A DNA stretch of 64,000 nt, from assembly GCA_038222655.1 (NCBI GenBank), contig JBBRHM010000001.1:3350-67349 (forward strand). The letters are read 5' to 3'. Of this stretch, positions 42,424 to 59,617 are shown piece after piece. This DNA comes from Chitinophagales bacterium (GTDB taxonomy: Bacteria; Bacteroidota; Bacteroidia; Chitinophagales; Chitinophagaceae). The first letter of the stretch is position 1. Every line of letters begins with the position of its first letter. Below the pieces are notes generated by a model. That model searched no databases and was not told the DNA's origin. It was given only the letters and a program-made list of their open reading frames with translations. A program made the translations under genes and the position numbers.

Positions 42424-45400
42424 TCAGAAATTAAATTTGATACCCACCTGTCCCTGCCAACGTGAGTTGATAGGATCCACAGTGTAGTATTGATTAGTAA
42501 GACCTGTTGGCTTATTAAATGTAAACGCCGGATTATAACCGGAACTTGGCTTTCCAACCGGAACAATACCCGTAGGATTAGAGGCCGTGATCAACGAAGC
42601 TTTTGTATTGGAAGGATCCGCAGCAAAAGACAATAAGTTAACCGTGTAGTTATTGACATTCGTTACAAACGTGATATGTCCCCAGTCATTGTTGATAAGG
42701 TTTAATACATTGAATACATCCAGACTAATCTGCAGGCTCTGCATCTTGTTGGTTTTACTCAGCTTGAACTCATGCATTAATTTCAGATCCAATTCATGGT
42801 TCCATGGTGTATGTAAACCATTTCTTTCTGCATACTGTCCCCTTCTTGTACTCAGATATTTATCGCCTGAGAGTAAAGTATTCAGGTCATTCCATTGTTG
42901 TGAAGCAGTATACACCTGGCCACTTTTTACAACATCCACCAGTTTAATATCGTTCTGATCCTTTGGAATATAAGGCAGGTTAGCATTAGCGCCATTGCCG
43001 AAAGGATTTCCTCCGGAAGAATACACCACTGTATAAGGGCTGCCCGATTGACCTGAATAAAAGAAACTAAGTGAAGTAGCATTTGTTTGATTCCAGATAA
43101 GATTGGTGCTGAACGTACCCACTATGCGGTTACGCAGGTCGAAATTGGAATAGGATAATTGTGCACTGTTTGGAGTGATGGCCGGATTCACTTCGTAGTT
43201 AGACTGGAAGGAGTTACGGATACCATTGCTGATATCTTTACTCACACCATAGGTATACGCCAAACTCCAGTTAAGGTTCAAAGTATGTTTACCCATCGCG
43301 ATATTATTGGTCGCTTTACTTAACTGTGCGGTAAGGTTGTAGCGGTATCCTTCGCTCGTATTGGTTAAGAAATAAGCATTGGAATATTGAGCATATAATT
43401 TACCTCCGGTATATACAGGGGTTTGTGTTGGACCGGTTGTATAATATTCAGTCTGGTCCTTCAAATTAATCTGCTGGAACTTCACATCATGTATCGTTTT
43501 TGTATACAACGCATCCAATGTTAATTTATATCCTTTACCGAATTTAAAATCTACCGCTGCACTTGAGCGCCAGATTGTAGGCAGTTTAAAATTATTATCA
43601 ATAATATCAACCTCTCTTGTATTGCTGGCAGATACACCACCATATTTAGAAACCGTGTCTTTCAGGTTCAAGGGATTGATAGCAAGGGGAACTACTGTTC
43701 CACTGGCCGGTCTGTAATCAATATTACCATACACACTGCCGTTAAGTGTATACGCATATCCTAACCAGGCAAAAGGCATCCTTCCTACAAATACACCTGT
43801 ACCACCGCGTAATACAATTGACTGATCACCATTAATATCCCAGTTAAAACCGATACGGGGAGATAAGGTTGCTTTACCCAGCCATTTATTGTTAAGCTGT
43901 GAAAAAGAAGTATTGGAAAATGTAGGACTGGAAGAATTATTATCAGGCACACTGTTTAAGGCAGGATCCGTAGAAGGTTGCTCACCAATGGCTGAATAAT
44001 CAATACGCAAACCCGGTGTTACTTTAAAGGTAGGACTTACCGTAATCTCATCCTGTGCATAAGCACTTAACAAAGCCACTGTAAATGGATTGGGCGGATT
44101 GTTATACAGAGCAGTTCTGTCGTTTGGATATTTTGGATCGGTTGTAAATGCACCACGGATACGGCTCGGCTTATCATTCAGGAAATTATTTACGTTCGAA
44201 TATTCCCAACGGCCATTCCATGAGTTGATAAACCCATACGTAAGATGGTAAAACTCGTTATGCGTACCAAAAGTAAATTTATTAATACCGCTGGTTAACG
44301 TAACATTATCGCTTAGCTCAAAAGTTTTTTGCTTCATGTTATAGATAGAAGCTTCTCTCCAGGTACCTGCCCAGATAGCGCCGCTACCAATATCCATAAA
44401 AGGCGAAAGAACACCAGGAAAATCCCTGTATTCATGAACATTGATATAACTCGCATTAAACTGATTACTCAGGTTATTGCTGAATTTTGTTTTCAACTCT
44501 GCTACCAGATTCAGATTTTTGGTGTGCTGGGTAAAATCAGTTGAAGAAAACTGGAAATTGCTGCTGGAACGTTCTATATTATTACCCACACCATTTGTAT
44601 AGATAGCTCGCAGGGTTAAAGAGTTTTTATTATTAAGGTTAAAGTCAAGACGGGCAAAAAGTTTATCGCTGTTAGTATACAATTTATAAGCATCATACGA
44701 ACCTACATCATACCCATACTTATTTTTTAACTGGTTCTGTATAGCCTGCGCATCAGCGATGGTTATAGCAGCTCCCGGATCGCCTGCATTGAGGAAGGTA
44801 GGTTCCTGTCGGCGGGTTTGCTCATAGTTAACAATAAAAAAGGCTTTATTTTTTGCTATCGGTCCGCTAATAGTAGCACCATATTGATAATCATGAAAAG
44901 CGGATCCTATTTTAGTTTTCAATCCATCTACACTTTTTCCAACCAAACTCTGGTTACGTCCATAACTATATACAGAGCCATGAAAAATGTTACCGCCGCT
45001 TTTGGTTACTGCGTTCACGCTGCCTCCCGTAAAATTACCCAGCTTTACATCATACGGAGCCAATTGAACCTGCACTTCCTGTATCACATCCAGACTGTAA
45101 GGGTTGGTACGGGTACCCGCACCGGCTGCACCACTCTGGCCTCCACCACTGATACCACCAGCTGAATTACTGAATCCTATCGCATCATTATTAATAGCAC
45201 CATCGATGGTAAGGTTATTATAACGGAAATTGGTTCCGGCAAAAGAGTTGTTATTTGATTGAGGGGTTAACCTTGTAAAATCTGATAAACTTCTGCCTAA
45301 TGTTGGCAAAGTGGCTAACTGCCTGGATCCAATGGTTGTTGATCCTACGATTTGTTTTCTGCCGGCTGTGGTTACCGTTACCTCAGTTAATACAGTTGCA

Positions 45401-45738
45401 GAACTGATAAGGTTAACAGTCATATCAGGGTTAGATCCTAATCCCAGATTTACATCATTGAAAACTTCATCTTTATACCCAACAAATGAAACCTTAACCG
45501 TATAGGGTCCGCCTGCTTTCAGGTTAGGAATTACAAAGATACCTTTACTGTTTGTCTGGGTGGTTGTTACAAACCCCGTAGGTTCGTGTTTCACCGTAAT
45601 GGTGGCACCGTTTACAAAAGCGCCTTTGCTTTCTTTTACGTGACCATTAAAAGTTGCAGATGTTTCCTGCGCAAATGTGGTTGCAGATAAGAAAAATAAT
45701 ACTATACATGGTATAGCTGCAAGCATCTTCTTAAACAT
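42424..45738 (-). CDS. Oar-like TonB-dependent outer-membrane receptor with carboxypeptidase-regulatory N-domain
   Basis: Signal peptide, G.V.....V.GATI, FRYNNLTIDG, PYDVKLGNFTGG.VNAVTKSG, C-terminal GQVGIKFNF. Confidence 0.85.
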   Translation of the reverse strand: MFKKMLAAIPCIVLFFLSATTFAQETSATFNGHVKESKGAFVNGATITVKHEPTGFVTTTQTNSKGIFVIPNLKAGGPYTVKVSFVGYKDEVFNDVNLGLGSNPDMTVNLISSATVLTEVTVTTAGRKQIVGSTTIGSRQLATLPTLGRSLSDFTRLTPQSNNNSFAGTNFRYNNLTIDGAINNDAIGFSNSAGGISGGGQSGAAGAGTRTNPYSLDVIQEVQVQLAPYDVKLGNFTGGSVNAVTKSGGNIFHGSVYSYGRNQSLVGKSVDGLKTKIGSAFHDYQYGATISGPIAKNKAFFIVNYEQTRRQEPTFLNAGDPGAAITIADAQAIQNQLKNKYGYDVGSYDAYKLYTNSDKLFARLDFNLNNKNSLTLRAIYTNGVGNNIERSSSNFQFSSTDFTQHTKNLNLVAELKTKFSNNLSNQFNASYINVHEYRDFPGVLSPFMDIGSGAIWAGTWREASIYNMKQKTFELSDNVTLTSGINKFTFGTHNEFYHLTYGFINSWNGRWEYSNVNNFLNDKPSRIRGAFTTDPKYPNDRTALYNNPPNPFTVALLSAYAQDEITVSPTFKVTPGLRIDYSAIGEQPSTDPALNSVPDNNSSSPTFSNTSFSQLNNKWLGKATLSPRIGFNWDINGDQSIVLRGGTGVFVGRMPFAWLGYAYTLNGSVYGNIDYRPASGTVVPLAINPLNLKDTVSKYGGVSASNTREVDIIDNNFKLPTIWRSSAAVDFKFGKGYKLTLDALYTKTIHDVKFQQINLKDQTEYYTTGPTQTPVYTGGKLYAQYSNAYFLTNTSEGYRYNLTAQLSKATNNIAMGKHTLNLNWSLAYTYGVSKDISNGIRNSFQSNYEVNPAITPNSAQLSYSNFDLRNRIVGTFSTNLIWNQTNATSLSFFYSGQSGSPYTVVYSSGGNPFGNGANANLPYIPKDQNDIKLVDVVKSGQVYTASQQWNDLNTLLSGDKYLSTRRGQYAERNGLHTPWNHELDLKLMHEFKLSKTNKMQSLQISLDVFNVLNLINNDWGHITFVTNVNNYTVNLLSFAADPSNTKASLITASNPTGIVPVGKPSSGYNPAFTFNKPTGLTNQYYTVDPINSRWQGQVGIKFNF

Positions 45739-45817: not shown

Positions 45818-45876
45818 AAAGGATTTTTTGATTGAGCCATCCTGCGTTATCTTGTGTTAAATATTCCCCTTCCGTC

Positions 45877-46590
45877 ATGGAAACGCATCATCACCATCAT
45901 CATACGCATACGGAAGAGCATTTAACGAGTTCGGAAATACTGAAAGATGTAGTTATCGGTATGGCTGATGGCCTAACCGTTCCTTTTGCATTGGCAGCGG
46001 GCTTAAGCGGCGCGGTAAAAGATGTGCACCTGATTGTGATTGCCGGTATCGCCGAAATTGCTGCGGGTTCTATTGCCATGGGACTGGGCGGCTACCTGGC
46101 CGGTAAAACAGAACTTGATCATTATAACAGCGAGCTGAAAAGGGAATATGATGAAATTGAACATTTGCCCGAAGTGGAAAAAGAAGAGGTAAGGGAATTT
46201 TTTGCAGGATTGGGCCTGAGCCCCGATGTACAAAAACAGGCCGTGGAAGAACTGATTAAGGATAAAGACCGGTGGGCCGATTTTATGATGAAGCATGAGC
46301 TGGGACTGGAAAAGCCCGATCCAAAAAGAGCAAGGAAAAGTGCTTTTAATATTGGTGCTTCTTATATTGTAGGTGGTTTGATACCCCTTAGTCCTTATTT
46401 TTTTGTAAAGGATGGTATTAGCGGATTAGAGATATCCGCCGTGATAACTTTATTATGCCTGATGGTATTTGGTTATTTCAAAAGTAAACTTACCGGAACA
46501 CCTCCATGGGAAGGTGCCTTAAAAGTGGCTTTTATCGGCGCAATGGCCGCAGGCTTCGCATTCTGGATTGCCAAACTGATAGGCAGCTAA
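45877..46590 (+). CDS. VIT1/CCC1-family Fe/Mn transporter
   Basis: DVVIGMADGL, AG.IAMGLGGYL, P...A.....SYIVGGLIPL; start ATG 45877 with an N-terminal His6 run. Confidence 0.9.
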   Translation: METHHHHHHTHTEEHLTSSEILKDVVIGMADGLTVPFALAAGLSGAVKDVHLIVIAGIAEIAAGSIAMGLGGYLAGKTELDHYNSELKREYDEIEHLPEVEKEEVREFFAGLGLSPDVQKQAVEELIKDKDRWADFMMKHELGLEKPDPKRARKSAFNIGASYIVGGLIPLSPYFFVKDGISGLEISAVITLLCLMVFGYFKSKLTGTPPWEGALKVAFIGAMAAGFAFWIAKLIGS

Positions 46591-47005: not shown

Positions 47006-47566
47006 ATGCAGTTGTATATAAAAAATATGGTTTGCCCCAGATGTATTGCTTCAGTAAAACACATACTGAAGGAGTCAGGCGTTACCTATTCATCTGTTCA
47101 TTTGGGAGAGGTAAAAACGGAAACTGACCCAACAGAAAAGCAGTTAGGATTATTACAAACAAAATTATTAGCTGCAGGGTTTGAATTACTGGATGATACA
47201 AGGAAGCGACTCATCGAAAAAATAAAAACCATCATAATTGAACAGGTACATTATGATGCAGATACTAAAAAGCAAAAACTATCAGAGGTACTTTCATCGA
47301 GTCTCCGCAAAGATTATTCTTTTCTAAGTAACCTTTTTTCGGATGTGGAAGGCATTACTATTGAAAAGTATCTTATTCAACAGAAAATAGAAAGGGCCAA
47401 AGAATTAATAGTCTACAATGAACTCACTGTAAGCGAAATTGCCTTTCAACTGGGCTATACAAGCGTTTCGCATCTTTCTGCACAGTTTAAATCGGTAACC
47501 GGTCTTACGCCCACCCATTTTAAGAAGGTTGGTAATGCACATCGTAAAACACTCGATAGCATCTGA
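47006..47566 (+). CDS. AraC-family regulator with N-terminal HMA-like CxxC domain
   Basis: KNMVCPRC; C-terminal IERAKELI...SEIAFQLGYTSVSHLSAQFKSVTGLTP. Confidence 0.9.
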   Translation: MQLYIKNMVCPRCIASVKHILKESGVTYSSVHLGEVKTETDPTEKQLGLLQTKLLAAGFELLDDTRKRLIEKIKTIIIEQVHYDADTKKQKLSEVLSSSLRKDYSFLSNLFSDVEGITIEKYLIQQKIERAKELIVYNELTVSEIAFQLGYTSVSHLSAQFKSVTGLTPTHFKKVGNAHRKTLDSI

Positions 47567-47647: not shown

Positions 47648-48382
47648 ATGACACATACCTATACAGTAACCGGCATGACCTGCACAGGGTGCCAGGCAAA
47701 AGTGCAACAACTGCTATCACAAATACCCGGCATTCAACAAGTAGCTATTGATTTGGCTAAGGCTGAAGCCACCTTATCCATGGAAACGCATGTGCCTACA
47801 GAACAATTGCAGGCAGCGCTAAAAGACTATCCCAAATATCAACTCAGTGATCAAAAAGCGCCAATACCGGCACGGCTGGAATTATCGGAAGAAAAAAAAT
47901 CATGGCTAACCACTTATAAACCTATTCTTCTGATTGGTGCATACATTACAGGTATTTCATTAATAATGGAACTCGTAAATAATACCTTTCAATGGCAGTC
48001 ATGGATGGAACATTTTATGGCGGGATTCTTCCTTACTTTCTCATTCTTTAAATTATTAAATATTGAAGGGTTTGCCGATAGTTATGCCATGTATGATGTA
48101 ATTGCAAAAAAAATACGCGTATGGGGTTATATCTATCCATTTGTTGAATTAATGCTGGGTATTGCTTACCTGACATCCTTTAGTCCTGTATATACCAATA
48201 TGGTCACTTTCCTTATCATGTCGATCAGTATGATAGGTGTATTACAAAGCGTTCTTGCTAAAAGAAAAATAAAATGTGCCTGTCTGGGTGCCGTGTTTGA
48301 TTTGCCCATGAGTACTATAACCATTATTGAAGATCTTGCCATGATTGCCATGAGTGGTGCTATGCTATTAGTAATGTTATAA
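47648..48382 (+). CDS. HMA-domain plus MauE/DoxX-like membrane protein
   Basis: GMTCTGC, then TM helices and a CACLG motif. Confidence 0.85.
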   Translation: MTHTYTVTGMTCTGCQAKVQQLLSQIPGIQQVAIDLAKAEATLSMETHVPTEQLQAALKDYPKYQLSDQKAPIPARLELSEEKKSWLTTYKPILLIGAYITGISLIMELVNNTFQWQSWMEHFMAGFFLTFSFFKLLNIEGFADSYAMYDVIAKKIRVWGYIYPFVELMLGIAYLTSFSPVYTNMVTFLIMSISMIGVLQSVLAKRKIKCACLGAVFDLPMSTITIIEDLAMIAMSGAMLLVML

Positions 48383-48467
48383 TGACCTGAAAACCAACCT
48401 ATTTAAAATAATTAACAACTCCTGTATTCCGTCAGTAGAAAATAATGATACCTTTACCTTGTTAAAA

Positions 48468-48854
48468 ATGAAAAAGTTTCTTGTAACCATATTGGCTTTA
48501 GTATATCTCTCCGTTTCGAGTGGGGCCACTATCAGTATGCATTACTGCATGGGAAAGCTAATGGCCTGGGAGTTGCAAGAAACAAGGAATACTGCTTGCG
48601 GCACTTGTGGCATGGAAAAATCAAGTCACAAAGGATGTTGCAAAGACGAACAAAAAAAATTACAGATTGATAAAGACCAGAAAATTTCTGAATCTTCTTT
48701 TCATTTTCTAAAGATTACGCCGGAGGCAATGAATTTTCATTCCCGGTCCTTCTTTTATTCATCGCTTTTTTCAATTAATTATCCCCTTGCGCATGGACCT
48801 CCTGCATTAACGACCGTGCCGATTTTTATTCGTAATTGCAACTTCCGCATTTAA
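48468..48854 (+). CDS. Cys/His-rich small exported protein (HYC..CC..PP type)
   Basis: Hydrophobic N-terminus, MHYCMG, CGTCG, GCCKD, AHGPP near the C-terminus; start ATG 48468. Confidence 0.75.
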   Translation: MKKFLVTILALVYLSVSSGATISMHYCMGKLMAWELQETRNTACGTCGMEKSSHKGCCKDEQKKLQIDKDQKISESSFHFLKITPEAMNFHSRSFFYSSLFSINYPLAHGPPALTTVPIFIRNCNFRI

Positions 48855-49002
48855 TAGTTTTCTCCTTGTAACATACTCGGCTTTCTGCCGTAATGGGCCA
48901 TGCAATATCAGTTGCCCAGTCTTAGTCTTACTATTATCATCAAAATAGGTTTCAGCATTAGCGTATACTAGTGTTGCTGCCTATACCACTAAAAAAAATA
49001 CA

Positions 49003-49461
49003 ATGAAAACTTTCAAAATAATATTTGCCATACTGTTTGCATTTTCAATAAGCCAATCAGTTCATGCTCAAAGTAATAAATCAGATCGTATAAAAGACGA
49101 TAAAAAATCTGTTACCCTGGTAGAATATACATGTCCTATGCATCCGGATGTAACGAGTGATAAACCCGGCAAATGTTCTAAATGCGGAATGTATCTTAAC
49201 CGTTCAAAAAAAGAACAGCTGAAACAGGATGCAGTAAACTATACCTGTTCCATGCACCCCGACGTAGTGAGTGATAAGCCCGGCCAATGTGCTAAATGTG
49301 GCATGAATTTACATCTTTCCAAAAAGGAAGAAATGAAATCAGCTGTGATAAATGGGTATACCTGCCCTATGGATACGGATGTAAAGAGTGATAAACCCGG
49401 CAAATGTCCCAAATGCGGTATGACAATGGCTGCCGCAAAAACAAAAGTTAAGAAAGCATAA
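49003..49461 (+). CDS. Exported protein with three heavy-metal-binding (HMBD) repeats
   Basis: Signal peptide; YTCPMHP..PGKCSKCGM, YTCSMHP..PGQCAKCGM, YTCPMDT..PGKCPKCGM. Confidence 0.85.
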   Translation: MKTFKIIFAILFAFSISQSVHAQSNKSDRIKDDKKSVTLVEYTCPMHPDVTSDKPGKCSKCGMYLNRSKKEQLKQDAVNYTCSMHPDVVSDKPGQCAKCGMNLHLSKKEEMKSAVINGYTCPMDTDVKSDKPGKCPKCGMTMAAAKTKVKKA

Positions 49462-49499: not shown

Positions 49500-49988
49500 A
49501 TGAAAACATTTATTTTTTTAATAGCAGGTCTTATTTGTATGTCAGCATCTGCACAGGTATCTAAGGTTACCATACAGGCTAGTGGGCTAACCTGCAGTAT
49601 GTGTAGTAATTCTATCAACAAATCTTTGAAGACGATTGATTTTGTTCAGAATGTAAATCCAAATATTCAGAATTCTTCTTTTGAAATAACTTTTAAAACA
49701 GGATCTGCAGTTGATTTTGACAAGCTGAAAAAAAAGGTAGAAGATGCGGGATTTACGGTTGCCAGCTTTACAGCCCTCGTTAACTTCAATAATGTACAGG
49801 TTAAAGCTAACCAGCCGATCAAGGTTGGTGACAAAACACTATATATTCTCAATGCAAAAGATCTGTCGTTGAATGGGGCAAAGCAGATAAGAGTACTTGA
49901 TAAAGGCTTTGTATCAGGCAAAGAATTTAAAAAGAATGTATTAGCTACTGCCGGTGGCGGCAACGGTACCTATAATGTAACTATTTAA
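49500..49988 (+). CDS. Exported HMA-domain metal chaperone
   Basis: Signal peptide, GLTCSMC, V.DAGF. Confidence 0.8.
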   Translation: MKTFIFLIAGLICMSASAQVSKVTIQASGLTCSMCSNSINKSLKTIDFVQNVNPNIQNSSFEITFKTGSAVDFDKLKKKVEDAGFTVASFTALVNFNNVQVKANQPIKVGDKTLYILNAKDLSLNGAKQIRVLDKGFVSGKEFKKNVLATAGGGNGTYNVTI

Positions 49989-49994
49989 GTATAC

Positions 49995-50025
49995 AGGTGG
50001 TTTTACCTCCTAGGTAAAACCACCT
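49995..50025. other. Perfect intergenic hairpin
   Basis: AGGTGGTTTTACCT-cct-AGGTAAAACCACCT, 14-bp stem, no T-tract. Confidence 0.7.
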
Positions 50026-50038
50026 TAAATCTTACCAG

Positions 50039-50848
50039 ATGAAAACCAAACTACTCATAGCCATGTTGCTTGTTTCCTTAACGGGCATGGCACAGGAGCT
50101 TTTTGTATTTACAGAACCGGCCAGTAATATGGCAGCAAAAAGTATAGGGTTACGGTTGAATAATTTTATCATGCCGGAAACCTATACAAACAAAACCAAC
50201 TACAACCTTGTTCCTGAGATAATGTTAGGTGTTTCCAAAAAACTGATGGTACATGGCGATCTTTTTTTTAGTAACCGCAACAAACCATTCTCTGCGGAAG
50301 GTGCGAGCGTGTATGCTAAGTATCGTTTTATAAGTAATGATGAGGTTCAAAGACATTTCCGCATGGCCGCCTATGGCAGGTATAGTTTTAACAACGGCAC
50401 TATTGACCAGGAAGAGATTAATTTATATGGGCGTAATACGGGTTATGAAGCTGGTATTATTGCCACGCAACTACTGCATAAAGTGGCCCTTTCTTCCGGC
50501 TTATCATTTACAAAAGCTATGGACAATGGAGGTAATCATACATTCATATATGGGAAGCCCGACAGTAAAGCCATCAATTATACCTTATCAATTGGAAAAT
50601 TAATGTTGCCAAAAGAATATACCGATTATAAACAAACCAATGTTAACCTGATGGTAGAGTTCCTTAACCAATTGAACCTGGGGTCAGGCAAATATTATAT
50701 GGATGTTGCGCCATCCGTGCAGTTTATATTTAACAGCGTTGCCCGGGTTGATATCAGTTACCGGAAAGAGTTAACCAGTACTTTATTCAGGACGGCCGCA
50801 GATGGATTTTTTGTGCGTCTGGAATACAATTTGTTTAATGCGTTTTAA
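50039..50848 (+). CDS. Uncharacterised outer-membrane beta-barrel-like protein
   Basis: Signal peptide, alternating aromatic/hydrophobic strands, C-terminal Phe. Confidence 0.6.
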   Translation: MKTKLLIAMLLVSLTGMAQELFVFTEPASNMAAKSIGLRLNNFIMPETYTNKTNYNLVPEIMLGVSKKLMVHGDLFFSNRNKPFSAEGASVYAKYRFISNDEVQRHFRMAAYGRYSFNNGTIDQEEINLYGRNTGYEAGIIATQLLHKVALSSGLSFTKAMDNGGNHTFIYGKPDSKAINYTLSIGKLMLPKEYTDYKQTNVNLMVEFLNQLNLGSGKYYMDVAPSVQFIFNSVARVDISYRKELTSTLFRTAADGFFVRLEYNLFNAF

Positions 50849-50875: not shown

Positions 50876-50936
50876 CAATCATGTAAGTTTTTAGGGCAAT
50901 TGTATAACTTTAAGAAGGCGTCAACTATTAATTTTG
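50876..50936 (+). promoter_or_regulatory. Second copy of the tandem repeat plus -7 box TAATTTTG
   Basis: CAATCATGTAAG (50876) and CAATTGTATAAC (50897), 21 bp apart; -7 box starts 32 nt after the second repeat, as at 47592/47624. Confidence 0.6.
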
Positions 50937-50945
50937 TAGTACTCC

Positions 50946-51398
50946 ATGATAACAAACAGATCAATACAGTTCAAAGCGGCTTTCCTGCTTGTTGTATTCG
51001 CATTGAATACAGTAGTAGGCTTTGCCTGTTCTGTGGGTGTGGATATGGGATTTAATACTTCACACCATGGGCCTGAATTAAAAGGCACAGTGCATATTCA
51101 TAAAGATGGAAAAAAGCATTTGCACAAATCAGGTAACGATAAACACCATCATGCTAACAAACAGGCGGCTTCAAAGAAAGATGATTGCTGCAAGGATAAG
51201 GTAATCAAATTACAAACCTCTGATAAAAGCTCTCAATACGCACAAACAGTAATTAAAGCCCCTGAATTTAACGTAAACTCCATTTTTCAAACACCGGTTT
51301 TTAATACAGTAAAGGGTGTAAGACAAAAAGAGATAGATTACTATTTTCATCCGCCGCCCCGTAATATCTACTTACACATCCAGCATTTGCTGATATGA
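50946..51398 (+). CDS. His/Cys-rich small protein with C-terminal polyproline
   Basis: Hydrophobic N-terminus, FAC, HHG..HIH..KHLH..KHHH, DDCCKD, FHPPPR. Confidence 0.7.
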   Translation: MITNRSIQFKAAFLLVVFALNTVVGFACSVGVDMGFNTSHHGPELKGTVHIHKDGKKHLHKSGNDKHHHANKQAASKKDDCCKDKVIKLQTSDKSSQYAQTVIKAPEFNVNSIFQTPVFNTVKGVRQKEIDYYFHPPPRNIYLHIQHLLI

Positions 51399-51474
51399 TT
51401 TGATGTAAATTTTACTACTTCATGGCTATGCCATGTCTGTAATCCATTCTTTACTACTATTAAATCATACAAAA

Positions 51475-55318: not shown

Positions 55319-58300
55319 GTGAAAACAGAAAGCAACATAAAAAAAATAATTATATCGATACTATTTTTTGGGGCATGTTCTTTTGTATCTGCACAGGATA
55401 TGAAAAGAATGGATATGTCTAAAATGGAAACTACAAAAAAGGTACAGCCAACAACCTATACCTGTGTCATGCATCCGGAAATCCATGCAACCAAGCCAGG
55501 TAATTGTCCAAAATGCGGGATGAAACTGATAAAAGAAAAACCAAAAGTCGCCTCCAGGCCAGAAGCTAAAAAAATGGACGGAATGCAAATGCCGAAAGAT
55601 CCCGTTAAGGTAAAAAAGATGGATAATATGGATGGGGTGAAAATGGATGATATGCAAATTTCTTCCACTAATAATCAATCTCAGCCGGTAACGTATACAT
55701 GTCCCATGCACCCGGAGATTCATGCCAGCAAACCGGGTAATTGTCCAAAATGCGGAATGAAACTAGTTAAAGAAAAACCCAAGGCTGCCGCTCCAGAATC
55801 AAAAATGCAACAGCAGGATGGCATGCAAATGCCCATAAAAAACGATTCAAAAAAGATGGATAATATGGAAGGGATGAAGATGGACAATATGCAAGTGCCT
55901 TCCACCAATAACCCATCTCAGCCGGTAACGTATACCTGCCCCATGCACCCGGAGATTCACGCCGGTAAACCCGGCAATTGTCCAAAATGCGGAATGAAAC
56001 TGGTTAAAGAAAAACCGAAGGCTACCCCTACCGAATCAAAAATGCAACAGCATGATGGCATGCAAATGACCATGAAAAACGATTCAAAAAAGATGGATCA
56101 TATGGAAGGAATGAAACTGGATGATATGGGCCATATGGAAATGTCAAAAGCATTACTTGGACCCATAAAAACAATTTTCAACCCTACCCCTCCTCATACG
56201 GTGCGTTACGATTTATATATACGGGACACAACCGTAGTTTTTGGAAAAAAACAAAAACGGGCCATTGCCGTAAATGGAAGTATACCTATGCCCACGCTTA
56301 CTTTTACCGAAGGCGATACTGCTGAGATTTATGTACACAATGAACTGAATGAGGAAACATCCCTGCACTGGCATGGTCTTTTTCTTCCTAATAGATACGA
56401 TGGCGTACCCAATCTCACCCAAATGCCTATTAAACCTCATACAACACATCTCTATACATTCCCAATCATTCAGCACGGAACGCATTGGTACCATAGTCAT
56501 ACCGGATTACAGGAACAGATTGGCATGTATGGCGCTTTTATCATGAATAAAAGAAAGGAATGGGATATTCCCACCATCCCATTAGTAATTAGTGAATGGG
56601 CAGATATGAAGCCAGAAGAAATTCATAGAAGTCTTCATAATGCCACCGATTGGTTTGCTATACAAAAAGGAACTACCCAAAGTTATACAGAAGCTATACA
56701 AAAGGGCCAATTAAAAACCAAGCTTACCAATGAATGGAAACGGATGAATGCAATGGATGTAAGTGATGTGTTTTATGATGCATTTCTGATAAATGGCAAA
56801 AATCAAAATGAACAGCCGCAATTTAAGGCAGGCGATAAAGTAAGATTACGGATAGCAAACGGTGGAGCATCAGATTATTTCTGGTTAACCTATGCGGGTG
56901 GTAAAATAACGGTTGTAGCCAATGATGGTAATGATGTAGAACCAGTTGATGTAGACAGGCTGATTATAGCCGTATCCGAAACATATGATGTAGTGGTAAC
57001 CATTCCGGAGAACAAGCGCTATGAATTTTTGGTAACACCCGAGGACCGCACAAAATCAGCATCGCTATGGTTAGGCAGCGGGGAAAAAGTACCTGCTATA
57101 AAGTTGCCAAAACTTAAATATTTCGCCGGCATGAAGATGATGAATGAAATGATGGATATGAAAGGCAACATGATACAAATGGAAGGTATGCAAATGAGCA
57201 ACCAGGTAATGGATATGAATACGGTTATGTACCCTGAAATAACAGGACCTGAAAATGCAAAAGATATCATGAAATCAGAGCAGATGCAGGGAATGAAAAT
57301 GGCTACTCCTTCTTCAAGTAGCACCAATACAATGAAAATGGAGACTGGTAAACAGATGCAGATGAATAATGGCAGCCACAGTATGGCTGGGATGGATATG
57401 AGTGCTGATATTGCTGATATAGTAACGCTTAATTATGGGATGCTTCGTGCCCCTGACAAAACAACGCTGCCTTCCGGTCCGTTAAAAGAATTAAAATTTG
57501 ATTTAACCGGAAATATGAACCGCTACGTGTGGACATTAGATAATAAAACAGTGTCAGAGTCGGATAAGATTTTAATTAAAAAAGGTGAAAATGTAAGAAT
57601 GATCATTTTCAACAATAGTATGATGCGGCATCCTATGCACCTTCATGGCCATGACTTCAGGGTATTAAACGGACAGGGCGAAAATGCGCCGATGAAAAAT
57701 GTGATAGACATAATGCCCATGGAAAGAGATACCCTTGAATTTGCTGCTACCGAAAGTGGTGATTGGTTTTTTCACTGCCATATTTTATACCATATGATGA
57801 GTGGCATGGGCAGGATATTCAGTTATGAAAATTCGCCCCCTAACCCGGAAATACCTGACCCCAAATATGCCACGCGTATGCTCTTCAAAGATGACCGAGA
57901 AGCACACTTCATGGTAAAAGCAGGTATAGAAAGCAATGGCTTCGATGGTGAAGCCATGCTCGCAAATACACGCTGGAAATTAAGTACCATGTGGCACCTG
58001 GGGCATCAGGACATGCATGGCTATGAAAGTGAAACCATGATTGGCCGTTACCTGGGTCGTATGCAATGGTGGTTTCCCTATATAGGTTTTGATTACCATT
58101 ATAAAGTGGAAGGCGGCCCCAAAAATATATTTGGTAATGAAGAAAAAAATTGGTTAGGCCAAATGAGTAATAAAAATAATCGCAAAACACTTGTAGCCGG
58201 TGTAGCCTATACCTTACCGATGCTGATTATTGCAGATGGTCGCATAGATGGTGATGGCAAGTTCCGATTTCAGGTAAGCAGAGAAGGTATTACCCTTACC

Positions 58301-58444
58301 CCCAGAATACGTTTCAACTGGATGCTGAATACTGACAAGGAATATGCTGCGGGCTTACGGTATACGGTTACCAAATACTTTTCTCTTTCAACCCACTATG
58401 ACAGTGATATGGGACTGGGAGCCGGCATTACTATAACTTATTAA
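55319..58444 (+). CDS. Multicopper oxidase with three N-terminal HMBD/Met-rich repeats and a C-terminal barrel-like domain
   Basis: HWHG, WYHSH, HPMHLHGH, HCHILYHM copper motifs; signal peptide; amphipathic-strand tail ending in Tyr. Confidence 0.9.
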   Translation: MKTESNIKKIIISILFFGACSFVSAQDMKRMDMSKMETTKKVQPTTYTCVMHPEIHATKPGNCPKCGMKLIKEKPKVASRPEAKKMDGMQMPKDPVKVKKMDNMDGVKMDDMQISSTNNQSQPVTYTCPMHPEIHASKPGNCPKCGMKLVKEKPKAAAPESKMQQQDGMQMPIKNDSKKMDNMEGMKMDNMQVPSTNNPSQPVTYTCPMHPEIHAGKPGNCPKCGMKLVKEKPKATPTESKMQQHDGMQMTMKNDSKKMDHMEGMKLDDMGHMEMSKALLGPIKTIFNPTPPHTVRYDLYIRDTTVVFGKKQKRAIAVNGSIPMPTLTFTEGDTAEIYVHNELNEETSLHWHGLFLPNRYDGVPNLTQMPIKPHTTHLYTFPIIQHGTHWYHSHTGLQEQIGMYGAFIMNKRKEWDIPTIPLVISEWADMKPEEIHRSLHNATDWFAIQKGTTQSYTEAIQKGQLKTKLTNEWKRMNAMDVSDVFYDAFLINGKNQNEQPQFKAGDKVRLRIANGGASDYFWLTYAGGKITVVANDGNDVEPVDVDRLIIAVSETYDVVVTIPENKRYEFLVTPEDRTKSASLWLGSGEKVPAIKLPKLKYFAGMKMMNEMMDMKGNMIQMEGMQMSNQVMDMNTVMYPEITGPENAKDIMKSEQMQGMKMATPSSSSTNTMKMETGKQMQMNNGSHSMAGMDMSADIADIVTLNYGMLRAPDKTTLPSGPLKELKFDLTGNMNRYVWTLDNKTVSESDKILIKKGENVRMIIFNNSMMRHPMHLHGHDFRVLNGQGENAPMKNVIDIMPMERDTLEFAATESGDWFFHCHILYHMMSGMGRIFSYENSPPNPEIPDPKYATRMLFKDDREAHFMVKAGIESNGFDGEAMLANTRWKLSTMWHLGHQDMHGYESETMIGRYLGRMQWWFPYIGFDYHYKVEGGPKNIFGNEEKNWLGQMSNKNNRKTLVAGVAYTLPMLIIADGRIDGDGKFRFQVSREGITLTPRIRFNWMLNTDKEYAAGLRYTVTKYFSLSTHYDSDMGLGAGITITY
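55445..56129 (+). repeat. Three intragenic tandem repeats, 237-bp (79-aa) period
   Basis: CAGCC anchors at 55445, 55682, 55919; each unit is YTC.MHPEIHA.KPGNCPKCGMKL plus a Met-rich linker; third unit truncated. Confidence 0.9.
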
Positions 58445-58522: not shown

Positions 58523-58855
58523 ATGAGCCATGTGAAAAATCAGGCATTGCTTACTGCCTTACATAATTGCCAATCAGAGTGCAACCATTGTATAACAGCC
58601 TGCCTGGATGAAGCAGACATAAAAATGCTGGCAAAATGTATTAAGCTGGATATTGATTGCGCGGAAATTTGTACGCTTACTGCTGCATTAATTGCACGCG
58701 GTTCTGAACACGGCAAACATATGCTGAAAGAATGCGCCGAAGTGTGCAATGCCTGCGCAGAAGAATGCGAAAAACATGCAAAGATGGGAATGGAGCATTG
58801 CAAAGCCTGTGCAGAAGCCTGCAGGACCTGTGCCCAGTTATGCAGTGCAGCTTAA
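58523..58855 (+). CDS. Four-helix-bundle copper storage protein (Csp3/DUF326-like, cytosolic)
   Basis: Repeated CxxxC/CxxC Cys spacing, DCAEIC, no export signal. Confidence 0.85.
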   Translation: MSHVKNQALLTALHNCQSECNHCITACLDEADIKMLAKCIKLDIDCAEICTLTAALIARGSEHGKHMLKECAEVCNACAEECEKHAKMGMEHCKACAEACRTCAQLCSAA

Positions 58856-58866
58856 GCATTATTGAA

Positions 58867-58899
58867 GAAGGCAGGTAGATTACCTGTCTTCCTTTTTTT
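58867..58899 (+). terminator. Intrinsic terminator after csp
   Basis: GAAGGCAGGTA-gat-TACCTGTCTTC followed by a T run. Confidence 0.7.
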
Positions 58900-58939
58900 A
58901 GTAACCTCAACAACATTATTTACGATAAAATCAACAATT

Positions 58940-59617
58940 ATGAAAACGAACAGAATTTTTCTTCCCTTGTTTGCAGTCACAATGGTGGCTACCAGTTGCC
59001 ATAGCGACAAAACAACCATTGATATGGCAAATACCGATTCAGCAAAAATGAGAAGTATGGGAAAAGATGCGGCAGATAAAAAGATGGGAATGGATGACAT
59101 GAAAAACAATGTATCTATGGTTAGTATGTCGGCCATGATGGAGAAAATGAATGGAATGAAAATGACCGGGGATTTTGATATAGATTTCGCAGCTATGATG
59201 ATAGAACATCACCAGGGAGCCATTGATATGAGTGAAGCTGAAAGCAAGTCAGGTTCAGATGCACAAATGAAAGCCATGGCAGAGATGATGATTAGGATTC
59301 AAAAAGAAGAGCAAAATACATTAAGAGACATGATAAAAAATAACAAGCCCGTGAAAATGAATATGGGGCAGGGCGATGCATTAAGCAAAGCAATGGAGGA
59401 AATGAAAACGAAGATAGGTGCAATGCAAATGACAGGAAATACAGATAAGGATTTTGCCGTGATGATGATTCCTCACCATGAGAGTGCAGTAAGAATGGCA
59501 AAAAATGAATTGTCTTATGGCATGAAAACAGGCCTAAAACAAATGGCAAAAAAAATGATTACTGACCAAACCAAAGAAATTAATGAATTCAAAAAATGGT
59601 TGTCGGCACAGAAATAA
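58940..59617 (+). CDS. DUF305/CopM-like Met-rich lipoprotein
   Basis: Lipobox ATSC (start ATG 58940); two D.DFA.MMI.HH..A..M repeats; Q..EI. Confidence 0.85.
   Translation: MKTNRIFLPLFAVTMVATSCHSDKTTIDMANTDSAKMRSMGKDAADKKMGMDDMKNNVSMVSMSAMMEKMNGMKMTGDFDIDFAAMMIEHHQGAIDMSEAESKSGSDAQMKAMAEMMIRIQKEEQNTLRDMIKNNKPVKMNMGQGDALSKAMEEMKTKIGAMQMTGNTDKDFAVMMIPHHESAVRMAKNELSYGMKTGLKQMAKKMITDQTKEINEFKKWLSAQK

Follow-up and report, generated by a model that had tools for sequence, protein, structure and literature searches.

The window analysed here comprises 64,000 nucleotides (nt) of a contig from a Chitinophagales bacterium (JBBRHM010000001.1, assembly GCA_038222655.1) and contains, on its forward strand, a short gene coding for a cysteine-rich protein of the HYC_CC_PP family. 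Judging from the genes that follow, which encode proteins with HMBD and HMA domains and one resembling an outer-membrane protein (OMP), this gene heads a copper/heavy-metal operon in a Chitinophagaceae-like bacterium. The reading developed below, to which we give nearly an even chance, is that the gene is the Bacteroidota counterpart of CopL, CruR and CutF, a leader that senses copper and acts in cis on the genes behind it. This reading is based on a promoter of its own, the metal-related neighbours, the fixed distance between the CC and PP motifs, a hairpin behind the stop codon and the existence of a sister family.

The gene starts with the ATG at 48468 and ends with the stop codon at 48852-48854, and its product has 128 amino acids (aa). 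A preliminary description of the locus had set the end at 49002, which is the last position of the spacer behind the gene, and the gene end has been corrected to 48854. Another start, the TTG at 48459, is possible, yet the N-termini of the homologues read MKKFL. The protein can be written as MKKFLVTILALVYLSVSSGA-TISMHYCMGK...ACGTCGM...KGCCKDEQK...PLAHGPPALTTVPIFIRNCNFRI, where the first hyphen marks the putative cleavage site. The hydrophobic N-terminus, the HYC, CxxC and CC ligand motifs and the HGPP, followed by 16 codons and then the stop, were all found at the positions assigned to them in the preliminary description. By inspection, MKKFLVTILALVYLSVSSGA-T follows the n/h/c pattern of a Sec-type signal with putative cleavage at SSGA-T, which would fit export; in addition, the structure predictions with AlphaFold2 (AF2) place a helix at residues 2-17.

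The protein is matched by the model NF047658 ('HYC_CC_PP family protein') above the cut-off of 28 bits, with an E-value of 1.6e-12 and residues 2-114 covered, and the same model matches all 38 aligned relatives. The motifs that give the family its name are all present (H25-Y26-C27, C57-C58 and P111-P112), and the homologues bear the precomputed Pfam label PF26622. Word indexing retrieved 382 homologues of the gene, the family comprises 4,238 clusters at 50% identity (E<=1e-3), and it was located in at least 409 genomic loci whose hosts are nearly all Chitinophagaceae, Sphingobacteriales and other Bacteroidota. In a literature search the name HYC_CC_PP was not found in any paper; it is thus an NCBI-curated and named family without characterised function.

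In an alignment of 113 homologues, H25, Y26, C27, C44, C47, C57 and C58 are invariant, and P111, P112, F126, R127 and I128 are conserved in at least 90%. The HYC, CxxC, CC and PP motifs thus appear far above chance at the level of the alignment. The mean frequency of the most common residue is 0.82 in the signal-like N-terminus, 0.78 in the HYC block, 0.79 in the CxxC block and 0.73 in the CC..KDQK block; it falls to 0.47 in a linker of 34 residues, rises to 0.73 in the xxHAPP block, drops to 0.36 in the four residues past PP and reaches 0.77 in the last 12 residues. The linker (residues 73-106) is nearly free in sequence and almost without insertions or deletions (entropy 2.31 bits, gap fraction 0.006). 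Related to this, CC and PP are 52-54 residues apart in 110 of the 116 close members and in 126 of the 130 distant ones, and about 90% of the members have exactly 16 residues past PP. Among the variants of the PP motif the order of frequency is HAPP, NAPP, NSPP and HGPP, so the HGPP of the window is a minority variant.

The features of the locus are collected in the following table.

Table. Features of the HYC_CC_PP locus and of the paralogous gene downstream (positions of the window)
Feature	Position	Strand	Remarks
ATTAACA motif, possible activator/operator site	48411..48417	+	about 31 nt upstream of the -7 box
Bacteroidota -7 box TACCTTTA	48449..48456	+	consensus TAnnTTTG; 19 nt upstream of ATG
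HYC_CC_PP family gene	48468..48854	+	128 aa and stop; NF047658, 48 bits
Signal-peptide-like N-terminus	48468..48527	+	residues 1-20: MKK, 13 hydrophobic residues, SSGA
Cys/His cluster	48540..48641	+	HYC 48540-48548 (residues 25-27), CxxC 48597-48608 (C44/C47), CC 48636-48641 (C57/C58)
Linker, variable sequence and constant length	48684..48785	+	residues 73-106
HGPP, candidate elongation pause site	48792..48803	+	window variant of [H/N][A/G/S]PP
Post-PP tail ALTTVPIFIRNCNFRI	48804..48851	+	16 residues; last 12 strongly conserved to C-terminal Ile
Pyrimidine-rich tract directly past stop	48855..48877	+	family element
Weak hairpin CGGCuuucuGCCG	48878..48890	+	position of family hairpin; 4 base pairs, -5.5 kcal/mol
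Second small hairpin GGGC..GCCC	48894..48918	+	-6.6 kcal/mol; in place of CUAUUGGCAUUUCU
Window-specific hairpin	48947..48984	+	-14.6 kcal/mol; ends 18 nt before HMBD start codon
HMBD x3 exported protein gene	49003..49461	+	PF19335, 2.6e-37
HMA-domain protein gene	49500..49988	+	PF00403; within 49500..50848 syntenic block
269-aa protein gene	50039..50848	+	OMP-like C-terminal end (...YNLFNAF), by eye
-7 box of ORF2, TAATTTTG	50929..50936	+	own promoter box
Paralogue ORF2	50946..51398	+	150 aa; NF047658, 32 bits (cut-off 28)
ORF2 spacer	51399..51474	+	arm 51399-51410 pairs with 51458-51469; inner hairpin 51421-51435

The -7-like box that had been noticed in front of the gene is conserved at this position across the homologous loci. 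Of 69 distinct loci, 41 have a perfect TAnnTTTG, mostly TACTTTTG, 13-22 nt 5' of the ATG of the family gene, and most of the remaining ones, the window included, have TAnnTTTA instead; the position of the box would imply a leader of only about 8 nt. The box is present in none of 61 spacers, as against 8% of shuffled ones, and neither a canonical terminator nor a sigma-70 promoter was found in the spacer of the window. This fixed upstream box and the lack of boxes in the spacers indicate that the HYC_CC_PP gene is the first cistron and that it most probably shares its transcript with the metal genes.

The neighbourhood was surveyed in 80 related genomic loci (L001-L080), 75 of which have enough flank for the next gene to be classified. 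It had been proposed to check whether the family always precedes metal genes, and the next gene on the same strand is a metal gene in about 73 of the 75. It encodes an HMBD protein in 48 loci, an exported HMA-like protein of about 120 aa in 15 (GxCxxCK and C-terminal CCxYxRK, recognised by eye), a DUF3347 protein in five, a CusA/CzcA-like pump in three (by eye) and an HMA-TonB receptor in one; in one further locus it is another member of the family and in two it is unclear. The genes of the block behind the HMBD gene are syntenic with the HYC_CC_PP gene in the closest relatives (L001-L009). As a separate observation, the HMA-like protein that substitutes for HMBD as first downstream gene has about 113-141 aa, is exported and carries (D/P/G/S/A)CCxYxR, usually followed by K; it was recognised by eye in L012, L014, L024, L025, L029, L031, L032, L035, L041, L049, L053, L056, L057, L062, L070 and L075.

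Several leader peptides with comparable traits have been described. CruR of Bordetella pertussis (Bp2923, DUF2946/PF11162) has an export signal, a CXXC motif and a RAPP three residues from its end; the spacing of 45 residues between CXXC and RAPP is conserved and its change breaks regulation, and copper relieves the arrest so that Rho termination becomes possible within a spacer of 162 nt (PMC9426467). The HYC_CC_PP protein shares with CruR the small size, a signal-like N-terminus as judged by inspection, CxxC, a PP motif of the RAPP class, the length-conserved distance between Cys and PP, a predicted poor structure, the first place in a copper-related operon and a spacer of similar length (148 nt). 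It differs in having HGPP or HAPP instead of RAPP, 16 conserved residues past PP instead of three (as the preliminary description had cautioned) and its PP 52-54 residues from CC, or 63 from CxxC, instead of 45; besides, HMBD and HMA genes lie downstream instead of a TonB-dependent transporter gene, and no match to the DUF2946 hidden Markov model is found. Rho dependence and copper-relieved arrest have been shown for CruR.

CutF of Rhodobacter capsulatus has a Sec signal, four Cys and a C-terminal PPP, and its copper-induced stalling melts a stem-loop that masks cutO (PMC9973294; bioRxiv 10.1101/2025.02.05.636593). Like cutF, the HYC_CC_PP gene lies directly upstream of copper genes; unlike CutF, whose PPP is near enough to the stop for the stem-loop to be melted, it has its PP 51 nt from the end of the open reading frame (ORF), and its spacer does not pair with the downstream start, whereas the sister gene at 50946 has a helix like that of cutF. 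A survey of CutF-like proteins collected 5,334 of them, 19% from Bacteroidota (40% after normalisation by the number of proteomes) (PMC9973294). Its filter, PP within the last 15 residues, excludes HYC_CC_PP because 16 residues follow PP, but lets the sister family pass. CopL of Xanthomonas and Stenotrophomonas (NF033807) is reported to be needed in cis for the copper induction of downstream genes, as cited in PMC9973294, and it is likewise a small protein rich in Cys and His whose gene lies directly in front of copper-resistance genes.

With regard to the PP motif itself, the earlier assignment of HGPP to the RAPP-like motifs agrees with the literature, in which HAPP and HGPP are listed among the 'RQH' motifs and N-A/S-P is the arrest tripeptide of the validated NAP-stop and NSP-stop peptides of Bacteroidota (PMC10987492, PMC12992588), so that [H/N][A/G/S]PP belongs to a recognised class. 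The same studies found that RAPP-like motifs alone are mostly insufficient for arrest. HYC_CC_PP resembles the RQH peptides in its small size, its putative N-terminal localisation signal, its motif of the [R/Q/H][A/G]PP type and the spacer between signal and motif, and its variants NAPP and NSPP contain the N-A/S-P of the NAP-stop and NSP-stop peptides. On the other hand, those peptides precede sec or yidC genes and have their motif at the C-terminus or a few residues from it, whereas the HYC_CC_PP family ends in F-(R/L)-I and its N-A/S-P is internal and followed by Pro.

We infer export, metal binding, pausing and an effect in cis for the HYC_CC_PP protein, which could work together as follows. 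The nascent chain would be exported, and the HYC/CxxC/CC cluster, which lies 53-86 residues N-terminal of PP, would by this distance have just emerged from the tunnel and the translocon when the ribosome reaches [H/N][A/G/S]PP. Binding of metal, as opposed to disulfide folding of the cluster, would alter the speed with which the ribosome passes through PP and the 16-residue tail to the stop. This timing could set the expression of the co-transcribed metal genes via the element behind the stop, a U/C-rich tract and a hairpin at about +19, and the likely routes of control, for which CruR offers a parallel, would be RNA-polymerase pausing, Rho access or the fate of the messenger RNA (mRNA). The linker of fixed length and free sequence fits the role of a ruler, and the distance between CC and PP parallels the functional 45-residue spacing of CruR (PMC9426467).

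The element behind the stop codon was analysed across the family. The spacer of the window (48855-49002) has, as the preliminary description reported, 148 nt and small hairpins, three in number, and leads to HMBD and HMA genes and others related to copper; its minimum free energy is -32.1 kcal/mol versus -23.2 +/- 3.5 for shuffled sequences. In the relatives the spacer most often has 97-101 nt. In almost every locus the stop is followed by a pyrimidine tract, a GC-rich hairpin and the conserved CUAUUGGCAUUUCU, in this order. The mean composition of positions +1 to +18 is 52% T, 20% C and 10% G, and a check for Rut-like composition found the tract U-rich rather than C-rich. The hairpin starts at a median of +19 (interquartile range 15-20), with a mean energy of -11 kcal/mol versus -4.9 for shuffled sequences. 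In 64 distinct stems 90% of the positions pair with their own arms and 44% with swapped arms, and many of the pairs are G-U, so the hairpin is a strand-specific structure of the RNA. Using an anchored alignment of 29 sequences and a structure given by hand, helix 1 was found to be 94% paired, with compensatory change in six of nine pairs; none of 500 shuffles attained these values, and controls slid along the alignment gave 23-42%. With plain MAFFT alignments, register shifts led RNAalifold to overlook the helices or to call too few of their pairs. When 811 kb were searched with a covariance model of the element, matches were confined to the positions directly after HYC_CC_PP stops, on the strand of the gene; the element is not a generic terminator or repeat. 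No 3' U-tract was found at the hairpin, and in Rfam the whole window gave no family at the gathering score and noise only at E<=10.

Three further candidates for RNA pairing were rejected. A second hairpin, GGCAU/AUGCC, is 77% paired without any compensatory change, and it is taken as conserved sequence rather than as a demonstrated helix. Masking of the HMBD start by the tract behind the stop gives -9.1 kcal/mol in the window, but in about 60 loci the own pairs are equal to shuffled and swapped ones. Pairing of the PP codons with the motif behind the hairpin reaches -14.4 kcal/mol in the window, a value attained by 3% of random 22-mers, and family-wide the swapped partners are equally good; it has been treated as chance.

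Since the conserved RNA begins right past the stop (the hairpin at +19 and, in the sister family, a helix from the stop codon onwards), an account in which the decisive event takes place at the end of the ORF, during termination or on the last codons, instead of at PP, also deserves attention, although we hold it to be quite improbable. The leader would again act in cis; the module of 22 residues from PP to F-R-I-stop would lie in the exit tunnel, as in TnaC or the NAP-stop and NSP-stop peptides, and the held ribosome would cover the U/C-rich tract beside the hairpin. Conservation up to the last residue and the constant 16 residues between PP and stop codon (13 in the sister family) agree with this, and termination-stage arrest has been documented in upstream ORFs of Bacteroidota (PMC10987492). 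Nevertheless, F-R-I at the C-terminus does not belong to the known termination-arrest motifs, members differ in their stop codon (TAA, TAG or TGA), and the hairpin at +19 falls outside the footprint of a terminating ribosome.

Returning to the copper-sensing leader that pauses at PP, several results weigh against it. The first concerns geometry. Between PP and the stop there are 16 codons. When PP occupies the P and A sites, the ribosome extends no further than about 48815, which leaves 40 nt to the stop and 60 nt to the position of the hairpin; arrested there, it could make contact neither with the conserved hairpin nor with the downstream start. The spacer also lacks start sequestration, the pairing with the downstream start in the HYC_CC_PP loci being -3.8 kcal/mol for own and -4.1 for shuffled sequences, and unmasking of the downstream start is considered unlikely in this family. 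The second concerns the window itself, where the family hairpin is degenerate and obtains no score with the covariance model R1; the spacer is also without the conserved GGCAUUUCU motif, and its strongest hairpin (48947-48984) falls in about 50 extra nt that are not present in the spacers of about 100 nt of the relatives. The third concerns known families, as neither DUF2946 (PF11162) nor CopL (NF033807) matches the gene or 37 close relatives, even at E<=5. In public reads, moreover, the locus occurs in DNA metagenomes only, with no RNA or ribosome-profiling run.

The remaining objections come from the C-terminal end of the protein. Among 245 full-length members P is conserved in 95% at position -17 and in 91% at -18, and the tail has the consensus (V/I)(P/A)(I/V/L)(F/Y)(I/L/V)(L/R)N(C/R)xF(R/L)I-COOH, with I at -1 in 97%, F at -3 in 93%, and N at -6 and C at -5 in 80% each. 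The last 12 residues are thus conserved at least as strongly as PP, and they are conserved as amino acids: wobble positions vary, changes are synonymous and Arg codons swap between CGN and AGA. The tail also contributes a sixth conserved Cys (C124), and both facts suggest a role of the finished protein. Besides, PP is absent in about 7-10% of the members (HAPL, NSLP, RALL, NAHP), which keep the tail; representatives include P0243, P0253, P0278, P0281, P0297, P0305, P0324, P0331 and P0332, and the PP-less locus L080 (6340-6390) retains tail, hairpin and HMBD neighbour. The reach of the ribosome, selection on the tail at the protein level and the dispensability of PP in some lineages mean that a simple model, in which a stall at PP melts a stem-loop, does not fit.

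These features of the tail would be expected of a stable, exported accessory protein that binds metal (a chaperone, a sponge or a partner of the HMBD, HMA or OMP-like proteins) and stands first in the operon by happenstance, a rival to be taken seriously although we consider it rather unlikely on the whole. PP would then be a structural turn, the tail strand and the sixth Cys would serve the fold or a contact, and the hairpin would be an element of mRNA stability or processing; the gene would add one more small periplasmic metal-binding protein. Small periplasmic binders are common in copper operons. The six conserved Cys, the alternating hydrophobic pattern of a tail conserved to its last residue, and the loss of PP with tail and context kept agree with such a protein. 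Structure prediction speaks on both sides. In a first AF2 run with 38 sequences (mean predicted local distance difference test, pLDDT, 58; predicted template modelling score, pTM, 0.32) residues 1-70, with a beta hairpin at 20-35, had a moderate pLDDT of 63-76 and the C-terminal half including PP and tail was below 50; in a second run with 113 sequences (mean pLDDT 54, pTM 0.20) confidence in residues 1-70 was lower and the split between the halves was absent. There is thus no confident fold with 113 sequences, and a sequence search of the PDB gave no relative. A linker of 34 residues with free sequence and fixed length is unusual in a folded domain, the gene is consistently the first cistron and is followed at a constant distance by an RNA hairpin of its own, and the sister family shows CopL-like similarity as well as a helix for translation coupling, all of which are at odds with a mere accessory protein.

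This sister family is represented in the window by the paralogue ORF2, which has a transmembrane- or signal-like hydrophobic N-terminus, His-rich VHIHKDGKKH repeats, CCKD and HPPP, and precedes genes for DUF3347, Haem_bd and P-type ATPase proteins. In the sister family the variable linker has 53-58 residues and PP lies 13 residues from the stop (16 in HYC_CC_PP); the tail of ORF2 has 12 residues ending in ...LLI, the consensus being DIRIAIQSFQI-stop. All 35 sampled members score above the HYC_CC_PP cut-off, and hhalign between both families, with the paralogue left out, gives a probability of 76% and an E-value of 2e-5 over the CC core. CopL_fam matches 33 of the 35 (best 1.8e-6) and DUF2946 four, all below the cut-offs, and ORF2 itself obtains 24 bits with CopL_fam, below the cut-off of 40; the gene at 48468-48854 has no match. 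The DUF2946-type likeness put forward in the preliminary description hence fails for the gene itself and survives as sub-threshold similarity of its sister family, and HYC_CC_PP is possibly a very distant relative of CopL, CruR and CutF.

The sister family heads operons with DUF3347 and Haem_bd genes followed by an HMBD P-type ATPase or an HMBD multicopper oxidase gene. Its spacer has about 75 nt, and the sequence that starts at the stop codon pairs with a stretch of 12-19 nt immediately 5' of the next start codon: in 56 loci RNAduplex gave -13.1 for own, -5.3 for shuffled (p 6e-11) and -10.7 for swapped partners (p 3e-6), while a column-wise pairing count was weaker because of register shifts. 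This arrangement is of the CutF/SecM type, where the start region of the downstream gene is opened once a ribosome stands at the end of the ORF before it, and it gives independent support to the view that the superfamily acts in cis on the translation of the next gene. As a side observation, the probable start of the DUF3347 gene in the window is 51475 (MKNIIIGIALTSIAITAC..., lipoprotein-like) and not the first ATG, 51433, which lies inside the spacer hairpin.

Both families end in F-x-I (F-R-I in HYC_CC_PP and F-Q-I in the sister family), and this C-terminal phi-x-phi might instead be a degron or a PDZ ligand. In that case the exported protein would convey metal status to a protease or partner in the periplasm, or would be quickly cleared, and the operon would be controlled at the level of transcription, for instance by an AraC-type protein with an HMA-like N-terminus encoded upstream. 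Degradation after export has been reported for both CutF and CruR (PMC9973294, PMC9426467), and the AraC-family gene at 47006-47566, with CxxC in its N-terminus, and a conserved ATTAACA upstream of the promoter are in line with it. We regard this explanation as very improbable, since it is a matter of motif resemblance alone, the neighbourhood showed neither a PDZ protease nor an anti-sigma gene, and the fixed distance between Cys and PP and the hairpin behind the stop are left unexplained.

A wider proposal, which we deem unlikely, is that HYC_CC_PP and its sister family together are a large class of metal-sensing nascent-chain regulators distributed throughout the Bacteroidota, with a new architecture. 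Its parts, which would act together, are a RAPP-like pause site, a tail of 13-16 residues ending at the stop and an RNA element behind the stop, namely the +19 hairpin in one family and the stop-to-start helix in the other. If true, this would be an arrest or attenuation module distinct from SecM, CruR and CutF.

The Bacteroidota analogue suggested in the preliminary description holds as far as a promoter-proximal Cys-rich gene, a metal operon and a conserved distance between Cys and PP are concerned, and is weakened by the remote PP, the conserved tail and the members without PP. As to novelty, the gene and the family were already known as sequence entities, the latter with its NCBI name, and so was the class of copper-sensing leaders with its Bacteroidota contingent, as CutF-like proteins of this phylum had been catalogued (PMC9973294). 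What is new is the assignment of HYC_CC_PP to the class, its architecture, in which PP is distant and the tail conserved, the hairpin behind the stop that is specific to the family, and the helix of the sister family between stop and start region. Should the regulatory reading be true, copper sensing by nascent exported peptides would extend beyond the Proteobacteria to a very common family of Bacteroidota (more than 4,000 clusters) whose geometry places the pause site far from the stop and adds a conserved tail and, behind it, a dedicated RNA hairpin. Translation initiation in Bacteroidota does not rely on Shine-Dalgarno pairing, and the family would offer a directly testable system for research on arrest peptides and metal homeostasis in a phylum that initiates translation in an unusual way. 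The annotation of the copper-resistance islands of Chitinophagaceae from soil and water would benefit as well.

Some observations on the surroundings of the gene are added here. Directly upstream and on the same strand lies the AraC-family regulator gene mentioned above and, between it and the HYC_CC_PP gene, a gene for an HMA-MauE fusion protein (47648-48382); this pair precedes the family gene in at least 15 loci (e.g. L033, L046, L052, L055, L061 and L078). The ATTAACA heptamer is located about 8 nt 5' of a -33-like TTTG, as judged by eye, and may bind a transcription activator. It is found at the same position in L002, L009-L011, L013, L015, L018, L022, L024, L028, L029, L032, L034 and L038.

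Further downstream, the translation of 55319-58444 is an ORF of 1,041 aa with three HMBD-like CPMHPE...KCGM repeats and Met-rich stretches; its His motifs like those of multicopper oxidases and a C-terminal part resembling a barrel give it the look of a copper oxidase fused to an outer-membrane protein. It is followed by genes for a Cys-rich, helical-looking protein of 110 aa with many CxxxC (58523-58855, from the translation) and a Met-rich protein of 251 aa (58862-59617), which together extend the copper island past the oxidase. On the other side of the locus, the ORF 45832-46590, which has an N-terminal His6 run (METHHHHHHTH...) and segments like those of membrane proteins, may be related to metals; it adjoins a TonB-dependent receptor gene (42424-45738) on the opposite strand.

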